Made by a program: the position numbers and the translations under genes
Source of the DNA: Candidatus Omnitrophota bacterium
GTDB taxonomy: Bacteria; Omnitrophota; Omnitrophia; Omnitrophales; Aquincolibacteriaceae
Length of the DNA: 64,000 nucleotides
NCBI GenBank assembly: GCA_022709525.1
Contig: JAKLIQ010000004.1
Span: 73,260 to 137,259 of the forward strand
Direction of reading: 5' to 3'
Notes under the pieces: model-generated
Seen by the model: the letters and a program-made list of their open reading frames with translations, nothing else
What the model was told of the DNA's origin: nothing
Databases searched by the model: none
In this document: positions 48,736 through 57,927 of the stretch, one piece after another
Layout of the letters: each line of letters starts with the position of its first letter
Position numbering within the stretch: position 1 is the stretch's first letter

Positions 48736-49020
48736 ATGCAAATCAATGAATTTGAGGTCTATACCCCTAAGGAAACGCAGGCGCTGCTCAAAGTAAGTCC
48801 GAGCACGATGATGCGTATGATCAAAAACGGCCTTATAGGGGCCGCAAAGGTTGGGAAGCAATACCGCATCCTGGGTAAAGAGATATTGCGGGTGATCTCT
48901 CCAAAACTCGAGGATAAAGTCGGCAAAGCCTACAATAAGGCACGCCATTGGGTACACGAAGGCATCGATGAGAAACCGTCCCCCAAAAATAAGCACAATT
49001 CTCATGAAAACAAAAATTAA
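48736..49020 (+). CDS. Excisionase/MerR-type helix-turn-helix DNA-binding protein (94 aa)
   Basis: LLKVSPSTMMRMIKNGLIGAAKVGKQYRI has the HTH_17/Xis-family pattern. Confidence 0.55.
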   Translation: MQINEFEVYTPKETQALLKVSPSTMMRMIKNGLIGAAKVGKQYRILGKEILRVISPKLEDKVGKAYNKARHWVHEGIDEKPSPKNKHNSHENKN

Positions 49021-50173
49021 ACGAATCCCATACGGCAAGCAGTGGATCGGAAAAGAAGAGCTCCGCGCTATGGCGGCGGTTTTAAAGTCTGATTTTTTGA
49101 CCCAAGGCCCAAAAGTCCAAGAACTCGAAACGCGCCTGGCAAAGACCGTGAGAGCTAAATATGCGGTCGCGGTTGCGAACGGAACTGCTGCGCTTCATCT
49201 CGCAGCGATCGCGATCGGCCTCAAGCCCGGCGACGAAGTCATTACCACCCCTATCAGTTTTATTGCCACGTCAAATGCCGCTTTATATGTCGGCGCTAAA
49301 CCCGTTTTTGTCGACATTGATCCCGAAACTCAATGCCTTGACCCGAAACTTATTGAAGCAAAAATCACACCGAAGACAAAAGCCGTCTTTGTCACTGATT
49401 TTGCAGGTCATCCGGCAGATCTTCGGGCGATCTATCGGATCGCTCAAAAGCATCATCTTATTGTTGTTGAAGATGCCTGCCACGCCTTGGGAGCTACTTA
49501 TAACAAACATAAGGTCGGCGCCTGCACCCATTCCGATCTTGCCGTTTTTAGTTTTCATCCTGTGAAACATATCACAACAGGCGAGGGGGGAGCCATCACC
49601 ACTAACAACCGGGTTCTTTATGAGCGGCTAACCGAGCTCAGAACCCACGGAGTCACACGAGATCCCCAAAAACTTCTCAACCGCGAAGCCGGTCCATGGT
49701 ATTACGAAATGCAAAACCTGGGATTTAACTATCGAATGACCGATATTCAAGCCGCCCTAGGCATTGAACAGCTTAAAAAACTCGGACGCTTTGTTGCCCG
49801 CCGCCGCAAAATCGCTGCTAGGTACCGTAAGGCTTTCCATAGTCTTTCTTTTTTCAAAATCCCGAATGAACAATTCCAAAACACGCATGTTTATCATATC
49901 TATCCGATCCGGCTTCAGGGAAAACTGGTTTCCAAACGCAAAGAAATCTTTCAGGAGCTGCAAAAACGCGGGCTCGGCGTTCAGGTCCATTATATCCCGA
50001 TACCTTCGCAGCCTTATTACGCCAAACTCGGTTACAGCATCAAGGACTGTCCTAAGGCTGAGGCTTATTACCGCTCAGCGATCACTATTCCGATTTTCCC
50101 TAAGATGACAGATAGGGAGATCGGAAGCGTGATTAAAATCGTTGCGAGTGTTGTTCGATCCTATTCCAAATAA
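49004..50173 (+). CDS. pseC: DegT/DnrJ/EryC1/StrS-family PLP aminotransferase; PseC-like by context
   Basis: Family motifs ([21 protein letters not shown], the [10 protein letters not shown] lysine region). ATG at 49004 overlaps the HTH gene by 17 nt. Confidence 0.75.
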
Positions 50174-50189
50174 ACATGGGGAGAATCTT

Positions 50190-51176
50190 ATGAAAAAAGC
50201 AAAAAGTTTTTTGGACGGCAAAGTGGTCCTCGTTACGGGCGGAACAGGCTCGTTCGGGAAAAAATTCATCGAGCTCGTGCTCAAGAAATATGACGTTAAA
50301 AAACTGATCGTTTTCAGCAGGGATGAGCTGAAGCAGTTTGAGATGCAGAAAACGATCCATGACCCGCGTTTGCGTTTTTTTATCGGAGATGTCCGGGATG
50401 TGGAGCGCCTCCATCGCGCATTCCACGGCGTGGATATTGTGGTGCACGCCGCAGCCCTCAAGCAGGTACCTTCCTGCGAATACAACCCGATCGAAGCCAT
50501 CAAAACCAATATCATCGGCGCGCAAAACATTATCAATGCCGCGATCGACCAAAAAGTCCGAAAAGTCATTGCGCTTAGCACCGATAAAGCGGCCAACCCG
50601 ATCAACCTCTACGGCGCCACAAAGCTTTGCTCCGACAAATTGTTTATTTCGGGCAATGCTTACACGGGGGACGCGCCGACCCGTTTCGCTGTTGTCCGGT
50701 ACGGAAACGTGATCGGTTCACGCGGAAGCGTGATCCCTGTTTTTCTGGAACAACGGAAAAAAGGCGTATTGACTATTACCCACAAGGACATGACCCGCTT
50801 CTGGATCACGCTGGAGCAAGGCGTTTATTTTGTATTGAAATGCCTTGAAATTATGCACGGAGGCGAACTCTTTATCCCTAAAATCCCCAGCATGACCGTC
50901 ACGGAGGTCGCGAAAGCCATTGCGCCGCGCTGCAAACAGAAGATCGTCGGGATCCGCCCCGGGGAAAAACTCCATGAAGTTCTCTTGCCAAAAGGGGAAT
51001 CCCAAAATGCGATCGAGTTCGATGACATGTTCATCGTCGAATCCAATCTGGAATGGGCAGAAAAATGTCTTCACAAAAGCGGAAAACGCGTAAACCTTGA
51101 TTATGAATATGCCAGCAACACGAACACAAAATGGCTTTCCGCCAAGGACCTGCAACGATTACTAAAAAAACAATGA
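50190..51176 (+). CDS. pseB: UDP-N-acetylglucosamine 4,6-dehydratase (inverting), PseB/FlaA1 family
   Basis: [14 protein letters not shown] and [13 protein letters not shown] are near-identical to PseB signature regions. 328 aa. Confidence 0.85.
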
Positions 51177-55773: not shown

Positions 55774-55775
55774 AT

Positions 55776-56840
55776 ATGAAAAAAACTTTAAAGATCGGAC
55801 ACAAGATCGTCGGAGAAGGGCGGCCGGTATTTTGTATTGCCGAACTCTCGGCGAACCATCTGCAGAATTACGGACTCGCGGTTAAAATGGTCCGCGCCGC
55901 AAAAAGGGCGGGAGCAGACGCCGTAAAGGTGCAAACCCTCACGCCGGACACCATGACCCTGGATTGCCATAACCAACACTTCCGGATTAAGGGAAACACG
56001 CCGTGGGATGGCCAAACCTATTACCAGCTTTACAGTCAGACCTGCATGCCGTGGGCCTGGCATCAAAAACTCGCGCGACTGGCGAAATCGCTCGGGCTCG
56101 TTTTTTTCTCTACGCCCTATGACACAAGCTCTTCCGATTTTCTTGCAAAACTCAAAATGCCAGCCTACAAGATCGCGTCGTTCGAATTAACCGACATCCC
56201 TTTCATCCGGCATGTCGCAAAAAAGAAAAAGCCGATGTTGATGTCCACCGGGATCGCTACGCTCGCGGAGATCGATGACGCCATCCGCGCTTGCCGATCT
56301 GCCGGAAACTCAAAACTGATCCTTTTAAAATGCACCTCGATGTATCCTACCCCGTTGACCGAATTGAACCTGCGCCATATTCAAGAACTCCGTAAGCATT
56401 ACGGCGCTTTGGTCGGTCTTTCCGACCACACGCTGGACTCGTCGGTCTCTGTAGCCGCGGTAGCGCTCGGGATCTGTGTGATCGAAAAACACTTCACATT
56501 GGATCGGAAGCTGGGGGGGCCGGACGCCGCCTTTTCTATGGAGCCGCATGAATTCAAAGAAATGGTCCGCTTGATCCGGAAAACGGAAGCCATGCTGGGA
56601 GAGAAACGTTTCCGCTTGAGCGCCTCGGTGAAAAAGAACCGTCAATTTTGCCGTTCGCTTTTTGCAGTCCAGGATATCAAGCGCCATGAACGCTTTTCTC
56701 CGAAAAATATCCGTTCGATACGCCCAGGATCCGGGCTTCCGCCGAAATATTACGATTTCATATTGAAAAAAAAGGCAGGCAAGGACATCCGCCGGGGAAC
56801 ACCCCTGGCTTGGTCCATGATCTCAACCCGAACTCATTAA
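55776..56840 (+). CDS. pseI: Pseudaminic acid synthase (NeuB family with C-terminal SAF domain)
   Basis: GEGRPVFCIAELSANH, KVQT and SDHT motifs of the NeuB/PseI family. 354 aa. Confidence 0.85.
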   Translation: MKKTLKIGHKIVGEGRPVFCIAELSANHLQNYGLAVKMVRAAKRAGADAVKVQTLTPDTMTLDCHNQHFRIKGNTPWDGQTYYQLYSQTCMPWAWHQKLARLAKSLGLVFFSTPYDTSSSDFLAKLKMPAYKIASFELTDIPFIRHVAKKKKPMLMSTGIATLAEIDDAIRACRSAGNSKLILLKCTSMYPTPLTELNLRHIQELRKHYGALVGLSDHTLDSSVSVAAVALGICVIEKHFTLDRKLGGPDAAFSMEPHEFKEMVRLIRKTEAMLGEKRFRLSASVKKNRQFCRSLFAVQDIKRHERFSPKNIRSIRPGSGLPPKYYDFILKKKAGKDIRRGTPLAWSMISTRTH

Positions 56841-56853
56841 CCCGGAGGTTACC

Positions 56854-57927
56854 GTGACAAAAGTCAACGAACAAAAGATCACCACCAATCCTTTTTATCA
56901 CTATCAAGACTTGTGGAAATCCGAAAATTTCAAAAAATGGGAAGCGGAACAGTCGGATGAATTCAAAAAATACCGTCGATTATGGCAAGAATGCCCGCGC
57001 CTGCGGAAAGCGCCTCCGGCCCCGATCAGCATCAATCTTGAATTGACGGATGTTTGTAATGCCGGCAATAAGCCTTGCATCATGTGCCCGAAATGGTTCC
57101 TGAAACCCCATAATCAATTCATGGCCTATGAAGATGCGGTTCGCGTTCTTGATGAAGCGAGATCGCTCGGCGTCTACGCCGTAAACTTGAACGGGGCCGG
57201 AGAATCGCTCTTGCATAAGGATTTCCCGAAAATCGTTCAATATGCCCGAAAAATCGGCTTTCTGGATGTGATGGTTCACACGAATGGAACGATGCTGACC
57301 CGTGAAATGTCGGAAAAGCTGATCGACGCGGGCCTGACGCGCCTCATCGTTTCGGTGGATTCGCACATTCCGGAGATCTACCAGACCATCCGACCCAATT
57401 TTAAATTTTCGACGGTCTATCAGAACGTAAAAAATTTTATCGCCGTCCGCGACCAGAAAGGGAAGCGCGAGCCTATTTTGCGTTTGACCATGGTCGTTAT
57501 GAAACACAATGTCGATACTATCAAAGACACGATCAAGTTCTGGTCCTTCGCCGATTACATCACGATCAATGATTGTATGTACTTTGACGATTTTAAGGTC
57601 TTTGATTTCGATAAGCAGAAAATCAACAGCGAGGCGAAACAAAAAGGCCTTATCTACGCCTGCGCGCCGCTTTATCAGCAGCTAACGGTAACGATCGACT
57701 TCAAGATCATCTCTTGCAGCACCATTTACGCAAAAAACTACAAGATCCTTGGCCATTACGGCAAACAATCACTCAAAGAGGCCTGGGAGGGAAGAGAGCT
57801 TGCCGAAATGCGCAAAGCTCACGAAAGCGGGCGCTGCACCGACATCCCATGCTGCGAAAAATGCGATCTTCCCCAGATTGAACTTTTGAAAAAGATTCGT
57901 GAACAAGATGGAGTAATGCTGCGCTAG
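56854..57927 (+). CDS. Radical SAM-like protein with unusual CX6CX2C cluster motif and C-terminal Cys-rich region
   Basis: ELTDVCNAGNKPCIMCPKW, with C-terminal CTDIPCCEKC. GTG start preceded by GGAGG. Confidence 0.65.
   Translation: MTKVNEQKITTNPFYHYQDLWKSENFKKWEAEQSDEFKKYRRLWQECPRLRKAPPAPISINLELTDVCNAGNKPCIMCPKWFLKPHNQFMAYEDAVRVLDEARSLGVYAVNLNGAGESLLHKDFPKIVQYARKIGFLDVMVHTNGTMLTREMSEKLIDAGLTRLIVSVDSHIPEIYQTIRPNFKFSTVYQNVKNFIAVRDQKGKREPILRLTMVVMKHNVDTIKDTIKFWSFADYITINDCMYFDDFKVFDFDKQKINSEAKQKGLIYACAPLYQQLTVTIDFKIISCSTIYAKNYKILGHYGKQSLKEAWEGRELAEMRKAHESGRCTDIPCCEKCDLPQIELLKKIREQDGVMLR

Follow-up and report, generated by a model that had tools for sequence, protein, structure and literature searches.

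Pseudaminic acid (Pse) is a surface sugar that resembles sialic acid. The canonical pathway to CMP-Pse5Ac7Ac in Campylobacter and Helicobacter uses PseB, PseC, PseH, PseG, PseI and PseF, and the substitution of PseH by a PseJ-type formyltransferase is already known: PseJ of Anoxybacillus kamchatkensis (PDB 6CI2/6CI4), to which the Pse5Ac7Fo route is ascribed (PMC11040635), is a Formyl_trans_N enzyme that replaces the GNAT PseH in a Pse operon, the PseB, PseC, PseG and PseI steps being retained. CMP-NulOs with non-acetyl N-substitution have also been detected experimentally in Ca. Kuenenia stuttgartiensis (SugarBase preprint, 10.64898/2026.04.20.719630), whose cluster for a 5,7-diamino-NulO places a deacetylase and a formyltransferase after the early and ahead of the late pathway genes. 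Further afield, the synthesis of mycothiol (MshB deacetylase, MshC ligase, MshD N-acetyltransferase) and bacillithiol (BshB, BshC) pairs a PIG-L/LmbE deacetylase with a class I aminoacyl-tRNA-synthetase-like or BshC-like protein, to which mycothiol synthesis adds an N-capping acyltransferase.

Elements resembling those of these systems are found in a locus on the 64 kb stretch of DNA analysed here (the window), which comes from an uncultured Omnitrophota bacterium. The locus encodes:

48736..49020, +, HTH_17 small protein, MerR/excisionase-type (Pfam PF12728, 48.6 bits)
49004..50173, +, PseC, UDP-4-amino-4,6-dideoxy-N-acetyl-beta-L-altrosamine transaminase (TIGR03588, 513.6 bits; cut-off 423.5)
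50190..51176, +, PseB, inverting UDP-GlcNAc 4,6-dehydratase (TIGR03589, 507.5 bits; cut-off 407.75)
51173..51898, +, CTP_transf_3 cytidylyltransferase in the PseF position (PF02348, 122 bits)
51900..52976, +, PseG, UDP-sugar hydrolase (TIGR03590, 205.8 bits; cut-off 153.55)
52978..53748, +, FT1, PseJ-type sugar N-formyltransferase (Formyl_trans_N and N_formyltrans_C)
53723..54379, +, FT2, second formyltransferase-family protein, first gene of the cassette discussed below (PF00551, Formyl_trans_N, 33 bits); alternative start 53750
54381..55103, +, WbqC-family protein (PF08889, 168.6 bits)
55075..55773, +, PIG-L/LmbE-family N-acetyl-sugar deacetylase (PF02585, 99.8 bits); alternative start 55114
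55776..56840, +, PseI, pseudaminic acid synthase (TIGR03586, 457.2 bits; cut-off 340.25)
56854..57927, +, radical SAM/SPASM protein (PF04055 and PF13186)
57937..59649, +, 570-aa protein without a family match
59646..61157, +, Wzx-like polysaccharide flippase (PF13440 and PF01943)

NCBIfam and Pfam models recover all nine genes named in a first-pass annotation, on the plus strand and at the coordinates given there; the block end of 57927 also takes in a tenth gene, that of the radical SAM/SPASM protein, which had gone unmentioned. From 48736 to 61157 each gene overlaps the next or is separated from it by no more than 16 bp, a tight arrangement compatible with the single operon proposed at that stage, although promoter and terminator scans of the locus gave results no better than chance. 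The HTH_17 gene, which is also called on other contigs, overlaps the start of pseC with its 3' end and is probably the first gene of the operon; in a Planctomycetia locus (L008), pseB is preceded by a 73%-identical homolog. The radical SAM/SPASM protein has a 60%-identical homolog in a Woesearchaeota Pse cluster (L007) and may be a further Pse-tailoring enzyme. The gene for the 570-aa protein is called on all contigs carrying the operon, and its last 4 bp are shared with the flippase gene; the protein gave no Pfam match and no homolog among the related loci, and could be a candidate transferase for the activated sugar. Heptose genes are also encoded in the window, and the surface glycans of Ca. 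Kuenenia stuttgartiensis, a PVC-group host, likewise contain heptose.

Four of the six canonical enzymes have equivalogs in the window, and the precursor logic is the same. These assignments are based on the curated NCBIfam equivalog cut-offs, which PseB, PseC, PseG and PseI exceed, whereas the LegB, LegC and NeuB models stay below theirs: PseC scores 255.7 bits with the LegC model (cut-off 420) and PseI 311.3 bits with NeuB_NnaB (cut-off 399.65), while PseB reaches 259.8 bits with FnlA (cut-off 730) and PseG 42.8 bits with MurG (cut-off 250). Hence the models support a Pse-type rather than a Leg- or Neu-type pathway, and uphold the first-pass identification of the hydrolase as PseG and the synthase as PseI; the Ca. 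Kuenenia stuttgartiensis cluster, in contrast, was called Leg-related by its authors on low homology. Of the five CMP-Pse enzymes originally recognized, it is the supposed PseF that fails its model, scoring 32.5 bits with the PseF equivalog model TIGR03584 against a cut-off of 205.7. The best solved relative of this cytidylyltransferase is 6oew, an uncharacterised 'Cytidylyltransferase' (E 5e-46). A CTP_transf_3-type enzyme also fills the PseF position in four related loci (L039, L008, L028 and L030), true PseF is found in 12 others, and no locus combines the two types. The window's enzyme, presumably a CMP-Pse synthetase, belongs to a CTP_transf_3 subfamily other than that of the canonical PseF, a point on which the window differs from both the Pse5Ac7Ac and the PseJ-dependent pathways.

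The window further departs from the canonical pathway in lacking PseH and in adding four tailoring genes (those for FT1, FT2, WbqC and PIG-L) along with the radical SAM enzyme. A six-frame search of the entire 64 kb with a PseH profile built from related loci returned noise alone (E >= 0.4), Pfam scans of ORFs of at least ~170 aa between 18.8 and 64 kb detected no GNAT domain, and no PseH-like GNAT was found in the 10 kb past the right end of the window, all in agreement with the absence first noted. The best PDB match of FT1 is PseJ (6ci2/6ci4, E 3.5e-29), with 41% identity over a 131-residue core, and its Asn/His/Asp triad is kept (N100/H102/D137). At 256 aa it is longer than the PseJ chains in the PDB (192-217 aa), from which it also differs in having a C-terminal N_formyltrans_C dimerisation domain (PF18216) of the sugar-formyltransferase type, typical of VioF-, Rv3404c- and WbtJ-type enzymes. 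Six Pse loci (L028-L030 and L038-L040) have a full-length relative of FT1, and PseH was detected in none of them; two of these, L039 and L040, are minimal operons of the form PseB-PseC-CTase-PseG-FT1-PseI with no further additions. Together these observations support FT1 as taking the place of PseH; a formyltransferase in this position predicts an N-formylated Pse, as the first-pass annotation had anticipated.

The same cannot be said of the other three tailoring proteins, which had been thought, together with FT1, to replace PseH. Their genes, an insertion ahead of pseI that sets the window apart from the PseJ-dependent pathway, fill the space from FT1 to pseI, their starts overlapping the preceding gene or separated from it by no more than 2 bp. 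Our survey covered those WbqC proteins that are close to the one in the window (34-60% identity), and found WbqC and PIG-L together among Pse genes in 31 of 31 loci, from Archaea and more than ten bacterial phyla. PIG-L lies within ~2.5 kb of WbqC in 30 of them and ~6 kb away in L028, and in most the genes are placed between pseG and pseI or adjoin pseI. A bona fide PseH accompanies the pair in at least 10 of the 31, indicating that it is additive rather than a PseH substitute. The gene neighboring WbqC codes for FT2 in 11 loci, for a class I methyltransferase in ~14, some or all of which could be O-methyltransferases, and for a GNAT in L036; additionally, there are two independent GNAT-WbqC fusions, each adjoining a PIG-L gene. 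WbqC and PIG-L also occur together on four further contigs outside a visible Pse context. FT2-WbqC-PIG-L is thus a conserved tailoring cassette in its own right, which in the window has been inserted after FT1 and ahead of pseI.

FT2 is no twin of FT1, contrary to the earlier description: the two proteins are 29% identical over 120 residues and fall into different subfamilies. The catalytic motif had nonetheless been rightly read as intact in both, the FT2 triad N100/H102/D139 being invariant in 12 sequences. The best NCBIfam matches of FT2 are fmt (50.7 bits) and PurN, and its PDB matches are PurN GAR transformylases only. PurN enzymes formylate the amino group of a glycyl residue that is amide-linked to a sugar amine. 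PIG-L has an AHPDD motif beginning at residue 16; its nearest NCBIfam models are the bacillithiol deacetylases BshB1 (64.1 bits) and BshB2 (62.4 bits), both below cut-off, and its PDB relatives include diacetylchitobiose deacetylase, BshB1 and MshB. For WbqC, a structural model gave BshC as the best match and also matched MshC, which predicts a BshC or class I aminoacyl-tRNA-synthetase-like fold. At the level of sequence, no link of WbqC to BshC or any aminoacyl-tRNA synthetase emerged: a profile search against the PDB gave no match at all, hhalign gave probabilities of 0.3 with a BshC sequence and 0.1 with a BshC profile, and the WbqC consensus and invariant columns showed neither the HIGH nor the KMSKS motif. 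To our knowledge, the ligase activity of BshC itself has not been reconstituted in vitro. The name WbqC presumably stems from the E. coli O121 cluster. The O121 O-antigen bears an amide-linked N-acetylglycine (PMC7685785).

In light of these connections, we tentatively propose, with a probability of about 0.4, that this single Omnitrophota operon directs the synthesis of a CMP-activated Pse with both N-acyl groups changed, in which the cassette deacetylates, ligates and caps. FT2-WbqC-PIG-L would exchange the 2-N-acetyl group, which becomes the N5 substituent: PIG-L would remove the acetyl, probably at the UDP-sugar stage but conceivably from the free sugar or CMP-Pse, WbqC, as a putative acid:aminosugar ligase, would catalyse the nucleotide-dependent coupling of the exposed amine to an amino acid or some other carboxylic acid, and FT2 would formylate the amino group newly made. 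This logic would copy that of mycothiol and bacillithiol synthesis, with which the window has in common the pairing of a PIG-L deacetylase and a BshC-like protein, and with mycothiol also the capping partner; the GNAT-WbqC fusions parallel the succession of MshC and MshD. The differences are nevertheless considerable. WbqC is about half the size of BshC (240 versus 539 aa), is devoid of its coiled-coil domain and fails the BshC HMM. Instead of GlcNAc-inositol or GlcNAc-malate, the cassette would act on a nucleotide-linked 2-acetamido-trideoxyhexose or a nonulosonate; the product would be a surface glycan sugar rather than a thiol, and the cap, unlike in mycothiol, formyl or methyl in most loci.

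The main rival, close to the first-pass reading, invokes deacetylation and formylation alone: FT1 would formylate N7 and PIG-L free N5, yielding Pse5Fo7Fo if FT2 acts on the sugar amine, or else Pse5NH2-7Fo, with WbqC accessory or unrelated. Ca. Kuenenia stuttgartiensis makes this a real alternative, since its CMP-NulOs have one free and one formylated amine, a free-amine NulO is present on its S-layer glycans, and no aminoacyl mass has been reported; its product is thus a free amine and not the new acyl group proposed here. The intact FT2 triad and the membership of sugar N-formyltransferases in the same superfamily also fit. However, this reading leaves WbqC unexplained despite its proximity to PIG-L in all 31 loci and the four other contexts, and has no place for the GNAT partners and fusions: deacetylation followed by re-acetylation is futile, and such a pairing makes sense only if an intermediate step creates a new amine. 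Moreover, Pse has two amines, yet several loci encode three N-modifying enzymes. The swapping of the 5-N-acetyl group suggested in the first pass is plausible; we regard deacetylation and formylation alone as rather unlikely.

In a second alternative, the acid that WbqC attaches to the deacetylated N5 would not be an amino acid but, for instance, 3-hydroxybutyrate, glycerate or lactate, giving Pse5(acyl)7Fo, and the target of FT2 would lie elsewhere. It shares the fold and contextual evidence with the preferred reading; Pse7Fo5(3RHb) exists in the pilin glycan of P. aeruginosa 1244, and the enzymes for most Pse N-modifications are stated to be unknown (PMC11040635). One locus (L009) also has WbqC and PIG-L without a capping gene between PseG and WbqC. 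Yet WbqC usually has an N-capping-type enzyme (FT2, methyltransferase or GNAT) as its neighbor or fusion partner, which points to the making of a new amine and renders this version improbable.

It seems more doubtful still that the cassette acts on another amino sugar in this glycan, such as a reducing-end HexNAc, and merely travels with Pse genes. WbqC is found in non-Pse polysaccharide loci (PMC5532660), and on contigs without visible Pse genes WbqC and PIG-L occur beside glycosyltransferases (L041, L043) or in fusion with a Bac_transf phosphoglycosyl transferase (L042, P0316); but the wedging of the window's cassette between FT1 and pseI, the similar placement in most other loci and the Pse association of this WbqC subfamily throughout the survey speak against it. 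Finally, an ordinary Pse5Ac7Ac pathway, with PseH encoded beyond the 64 kb and 10 kb flank searched (the longest recorded contig with these genes is 188 kb) and the formyltransferases serving other ends, for instance as Fmt-like tRNA enzymes, is hardly credible given the recurrence of FT1-type operons without PseH, the sugar-formyltransferase architecture of FT1 with PseJ as its closest solved relative, and fmt scores of 114 bits for FT1 and 51 bits for FT2 against a cut-off of 201.5, which rule out Fmt for both.

On the preferred reading of deacetylation, ligation and capping, family assignments suggest that PseB and PseC would convert UDP-GlcNAc to UDP-4-amino-4,6-dideoxy-L-AltNAc and that FT1 would formylate its 4-amine, in place of acetylation by PseH, to give the N7-formyl of the finished sugar; PseG would then strip UDP, PseI carry out the condensation with PEP and the CTP_transf_3 enzyme form the CMP-sugar. 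The sugar expected to result is Pse7Fo5(N-formyl-aminoacyl) or one closely similar, and the novel part of the finding is the function proposed for WbqC.

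Ten plus-strand genes fill 49004-57927, separated by gaps of 16 bp or less or by overlapping starts, and the same locus is present on contigs from several metagenomes; a scan of promoters and terminators gave counts no higher than the shuffle expectation. The interval between pseG and pseI holds two formyltransferase-family genes (FT1 and FT2), WbqC (PF08889) and PIG-L (PF02585). These and the genes bordering the operon are:

47545-48063 and 48065-48583, + strand: two adjoining genes immediately upstream of the operon, each for a predicted membrane protein of 172 aa that matches no family
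48736-49020, + strand: small HTH_17 protein, overlapping the pseC start
52978-53748, + strand: FT1
53723-54379, + strand: FT2
54381-55103, + strand: WbqC
55075-55773, + strand: PIG-L
56854-57927, + strand: radical SAM/SPASM protein, directly 3' of pseI, inside the block described by the first-pass annotation and unmentioned there
57937-59649, + strand: 570-aa protein with no Pfam match, its end overlapping the gene for a Wzx-like flippase by 4 bp

Core enzymes were assigned by curated NCBIfam equivalog cut-offs, which are passed by PseB (TIGR03589, inverting 4,6-dehydratase; 507.5 bits against 407.75), PseC (TIGR03588, aminotransferase; 513.6 against 423.5, with the LegC model under its cut-off), PseG (TIGR03590, UDP-sugar hydrolase; 205.8 against 153.55) and PseI (TIGR03586, synthase; 457.2 against 340.25). 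Competing Leg, Fnl, MurG and NeuB models all miss their cut-offs for these four proteins. By these scores, the encoded pathway is predicted to belong to the Pse family at four of its six canonical steps. A legionaminic or neuraminic acid pathway is ruled out, since the Leg and NeuB models fail where the Pse models pass; in particular, the synthase does not group with NeuB (NeuB_NnaB 311.3 bits, under its 399.65). The protein at the PseF position matches the CTP_transf_3 family (122 bits) and fails the PseF model (TIGR03584, 32.5 bits against 205.7), such that its earlier naming as PseF stands at the level of the family and not of the specific enzyme. Its nearest solved structure is 6oew, an unnamed cytidylyltransferase. 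As this CTP_transf_3 type fills the PseF position in many Pse operons, alternating with true PseF, the PseF step is predicted to be served here by another subfamily that is common in such operons.

A six-frame search of the window with a clean PseH profile built from related loci returned only noise, and Pfam scans of 18.8-64 kb and of the 10 kb beyond its right end detected no GNAT. The first-pass report of PseC, PseB, PseG and PseI with no PseH or other GNAT in the block is thus borne out in the window and the adjoining 10 kb. FT1 combines Formyl_trans_N (PF00551, 84.4 bits) with N_formyltrans_C, an architecture common to the top 120 of its 1,811 family matches at E <= 1e-10, and its catalytic triad (N100/H102/D137) aligns with that of its relatives. 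Its top PDB match is PseJ (6ci2/6ci4; E 3.5e-29, 41% identity over the 131-residue catalytic core), and it scores 114 bits against the fmt model, under the cut-off of 201.5; the concern that the formyltransferases might prove to be Fmt-like does not apply to FT1. On these comparisons FT1 is a PseJ-type sugar N-formyltransferase that fills the PseH step, with formylating activity predicted. Operons of the form PseB-PseC-CTase-PseG-FT1-PseI occur on long contigs (L039 and L040, with L038 similar) without PseH, WbqC or PIG-L. The window shares its PseH-less Pse operon with FT1 with these three and with L028-L030, the three WbqC-bearing loci that encode a full-length FT1, none of which has a detectable PseH. 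Because the minimal FT1 operons exist without them, the operon in the window can be understood as a PseJ-type operon carrying three additional genes between FT1 and pseI. The use of a PseJ-type enzyme in place of PseH is already known, and that part of the locus is therefore ordinary.

FT2 matches Formyl_trans_N weakly, and its homologs retain invariant Asn100, His102 and Asp139. Its identity to FT1 is just 29%, which rules out recent tandem duplication and corrects the earlier description of the pair as twin paralogs. The only solved relatives of FT2 are PurN enzymes, for which a glycyl amide carried on a sugar amine provides the acceptor amine; this likeness offers a suggestive parallel, short of proof, to the capping role proposed for FT2 below. 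Further formyltransferase-like sequences also occur among the related loci. In a third subfamily, the catalytic Asn is replaced by Val (LVVHES motif). Its members are fused to PseH in L007 (11406-12623), to a weak PseH-like GNAT in L021 (8131-9345) and to PseG in L036 (7653-9386), and one stands alone in L013 (8736-9365). In loci of Aquificaceae and Thermosynechococcus (L015 11397-12497, L022 5152-6243, L025 3283-4390), a short PseJ-like formyltransferase domain is either fused to PseH or lies next to it. These three loci also encode a methyltransferase, WbqC and PIG-L, and would thus bring three N-modifying activities to a sugar with two amines.

To study the distribution of WbqC, 31 loci were retrieved from species-representative genomes with the WbqC alignment, and the window and reference proteins were mapped onto them. 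They include representatives of Woesearchaeota, Methanobacteriota, Planctomycetota, Omnitrophota, Aquificaceae, Balneolaceae, Holosporaceae, Sporomusa, Curvibacter, Thermosynechococcus and Desulfovibrionaceae. PIG-L is paired with WbqC in all 31, lying within ~2.5 kb in 30 and ~6 kb away in the other (L028), and likewise on four further contigs, where it adjoins WbqC in every case, even without visible Pse genes. PseB, PseC, PseG and PseI flank the pair in nearly all loci. WbqC directly adjoins an FT2-type gene in 11 loci, a gene for a class I methyltransferase in about 14 and a GNAT gene in L036. A strong PseH (above the TIGR03585 cut-off for the representatives tested) is encoded in at least 10 of the loci; since WbqC and PIG-L co-occur with PseH, neither can be its substitute. 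Hence, the proposal that formyltransferases, WbqC and PIG-L jointly replace PseH survives for FT1, given the PseH-less operons with a PseJ-type enzyme, and fails for the other two. Judged from sequence and gene context, FT2 or a methyltransferase, WbqC and PIG-L form a conserved, mobile tailoring cassette found across Archaea and many bacterial phyla. We found no described function for the FT2-WbqC-PIG-L cassette in the searchable literature.

The window's WbqC scores 168.6 bits against PF08889 (gathering score 21.3), a family with 12,244 representative clusters matching at E <= 1e-3. It is uncharacterised in the open-access literature (PMC5532660), and in our searches of that literature WbqC, BshC and LmbE/PIG-L were nowhere tied to nonulosonic acids. 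An AlphaFold2 model from 35 sequences (pLDDT 96.1, pTM 0.92) had no significant Foldseek match in the PDB (best E 0.017); the only hit of substantial probability was BshC (0.85, TM 0.41). On this model, WbqC is predicted to possess a class I aaRS-like (Rossmann/HUP) catalytic fold, and its relationship to BshC is a fold-level resemblance rather than family membership. WbqC matched no NCBIfam model, including TIGR03998 (BshC) and a CysRS-like model, and its profile recovered only chance hits from all PDB sequences. In hhalign it reached a probability of 0.3 with the B. subtilis BshC sequence (its identity as BshC checked: 671.9 bits, 99% identity) and 0.1 with a profile of 22 BshC sequences. 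As these profile searches reveal no sequence homology, the link to BshC is one of predicted structure. By eye, neither HIGH nor KMSKS was seen in the WbqC consensus, and no nucleotide-binding signature was recognised; an invariant S6-Q7-P8-R9-Y10 follows strand 1, the place of HIGH in class I enzymes, while Y169-x-S171-G172 comes after a later strand. Two independent GNAT-WbqC fusions occur in the wider family, along with a tandem WbqC-WbqC and a Bac_transf-WbqC fusion. Of the proteins with unusual architectures, P0241 is the tandem, P0316 (L042 1111-2382) is the fusion to a Bac_transf phosphoglycosyl transferase, and P0346 (L043 1581-2765) has a C-terminal extension of 170 aa that is unassigned; PIG-L is encoded next door on both the P0316 and P0346 contigs.

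PIG-L enzymes de-N-acetylate 2-acetamido sugars. The representative in the window (PF02585, 99.8 bits) retains the metal-binding AHPDD motif, with HPDD starting at residue 17, and the solved structures related to it are those of diacetylchitobiose deacetylase, BshB and MshB. Its best equivalog scores are to the bacillithiol deacetylases BshB1 (64.1 bits) and BshB2 (62.4), with 28.4 for MshB, all of them short of the cut-offs (182.5, 195.25 and 224.35, respectively).

In the mycothiol pathway, GlcNAc-inositol first loses its acetyl group through the action of MshB; MshC, a class I aaRS-like enzyme, then joins cysteine to the resulting amine, and the GNAT MshD acetylates the amine of that cysteine; bacillithiol synthesis uses BshB and BshC likewise. 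The cassette offers three matching, closely linked parts, namely a deacetylase, a BshC-like protein and an N-capping enzyme, the last being FT2 in the window and a methyltransferase or GNAT elsewhere, where mycothiol uses the GNAT MshD. It is to MshB/MshC/MshD and BshB/BshC that we liken the cassette, although the sequence-membership tests for them failed. The GNAT-WbqC fusions are informative in this regard, because a deacetylase beside an acetyltransferase would be futile unless a new amine arises between the two reactions. Given these shared parts and the argument from the fusions, we propose that FT1 would formylate the C4 amine, which becomes N7, and that PIG-L would remove the C2 N-acetyl group, at the future N5, probably on the UDP-sugar by analogy with the substrates of its relatives. 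WbqC might then ligate an amino acid or other acid to the freed amine, and FT2 might formylate the new amine, before PseG, PseI and the cytidylyltransferase complete the sugar. Published work describes PseI and PseF as tolerant of altered N-acyl groups (PMC11040635, PMC13576459). This tentative model of ligation by WbqC and capping by FT2, to which we assign a probability of about 0.42, draws on a predicted fold and on gene context. We know of no in vitro demonstration of ligation by BshC itself. Extended to the family, WbqC could be a minimal BshC-like ligase that forms with PIG-L a widespread two-step "N-acetyl exchange" cassette, in which acetyl leaves, an amino acid or other acid enters, and the product is capped by the neighbouring formyl-, methyl- or acetyltransferase; we regard this generalization as somewhat less likely than not.

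The main rival, rated somewhat below that model and with a precedent, is a simpler product, either Pse5NH2-7Fo or Pse5Fo7Fo, with WbqC doing something else. Ca. Kuenenia stuttgartiensis, which bears a free-amine nonulosonic acid on its S-layer, produces CMP-nonulosonates in which one amine is free and the other formylated, and its cluster has a deacetylase and a formyltransferase (preprint 10.64898/2026.04.20.719630). That chemistry matches the simpler outcome and is the reason for entertaining it in the window; the invariant pairing of WbqC with PIG-L and the GNAT-WbqC fusions favor ligation. Smaller shares fall to a non-amino-acid acyl group on N5 and to action of the cassette on another sugar, which pairs lacking visible Pse genes would allow and the Pse genes at nearly all loci disfavor. 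A PseH encoded elsewhere in the genome is likewise improbable given the PseH-less operons that carry FT1.

The operon lies in a stretch, running from ~20 kb to the window's right end, where G+C falls from ~0.53 to ~0.47. This stretch is a long surface-glycan island of GT2 and PMT_2/GT-C glycosyltransferases, methyltransferases, heptose genes and a flippase, and it extends at least 10 kb past the window (L044, the continuing locus, 11420-21276); no flagellin or Maf genes were seen. Over ~20000-64000 and the 10 kb beyond, it codes for at least four PMT_2/GT-C-like proteins, several GT2 and GT4 enzymes, an LPG_synthase_TM protein, DUF2079, a UDP-GlcNAc 2-epimerase and a 1109-aa protein with a C-terminal methyltransferase domain (23615-26944). 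It also contains:

31077-35681, + strand: 813-aa PPDK_N and PEP-utilizer protein, with a class I glutamine amidotransferase (Peptidase_C26), a nucleotidyltransferase and cytidylate kinase encoded after it
36770-41818, + strand: run of sugar-nucleotide genes (epimerase/dehydratase; HldE-like bifunctional PfkB and cytidylyltransferase-like protein; GmhA-like SIS-domain isomerase; transketolase N-terminal fragment)
39939-41006, + strand: second radical SAM/SPASM protein, inside that run

The heptose genes at 36770-41818 recall the heptose-rich S-layer glycans of Ca. Kuenenia. The radical SAM/SPASM protein next to pseI has a 60%-identical homolog within a Woesearchaeota Pse cluster (L007 5168-6259), with weaker copies in L007 and L009, and may be a further Pse-tailoring enzyme. 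The HTH_17 protein, with a 73%-identical homolog upstream of pseB in an uncultured Planctomycetia genome (L008 4057-4293), may be a conserved regulator of these operons. The 570-aa protein has a homolog in none of the related loci and is a candidate transferase for the modified Pse. The pair of predicted 172-aa membrane proteins is also annotated as genes on other contigs.

Overall, the gene content reported in the first-pass annotation holds, with PseF reduced to its family and the formyltransferases shown to be divergent, and its interpretation holds in part. Pseudaminic acids occur on flagella, pili, capsules, LPS and S-layers, and their N-acyl groups set charge, antigenicity and recognition by phages and antibodies. 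Most enzymes of N-modification are stated to be unknown (PMC11040635). What is new here is the conservation of the FT2/methyltransferase-WbqC-PIG-L cassette and a fold-based prediction that gives the large, uncharacterised WbqC family a concrete biochemical role; this testable prediction is the most valuable output of the analysis. If true, it would supply candidate enzymes for the chemoenzymatic synthesis of N5-modified Pse and help to account for nonulosonic acids with a free amine or a replaced acyl group in environmental bacteria, for example anammox Planctomycetes. Should the wider reading of N-acetyl exchange also be true, it would name the missing enzymes for amide-linked amino acids and unusual N5-acyl groups in Pse, O-antigens and archaeal and bacterial surface glycans, and the logic of mycothiol and bacillithiol synthesis would be a special case of a broader glycan-tailoring strategy.
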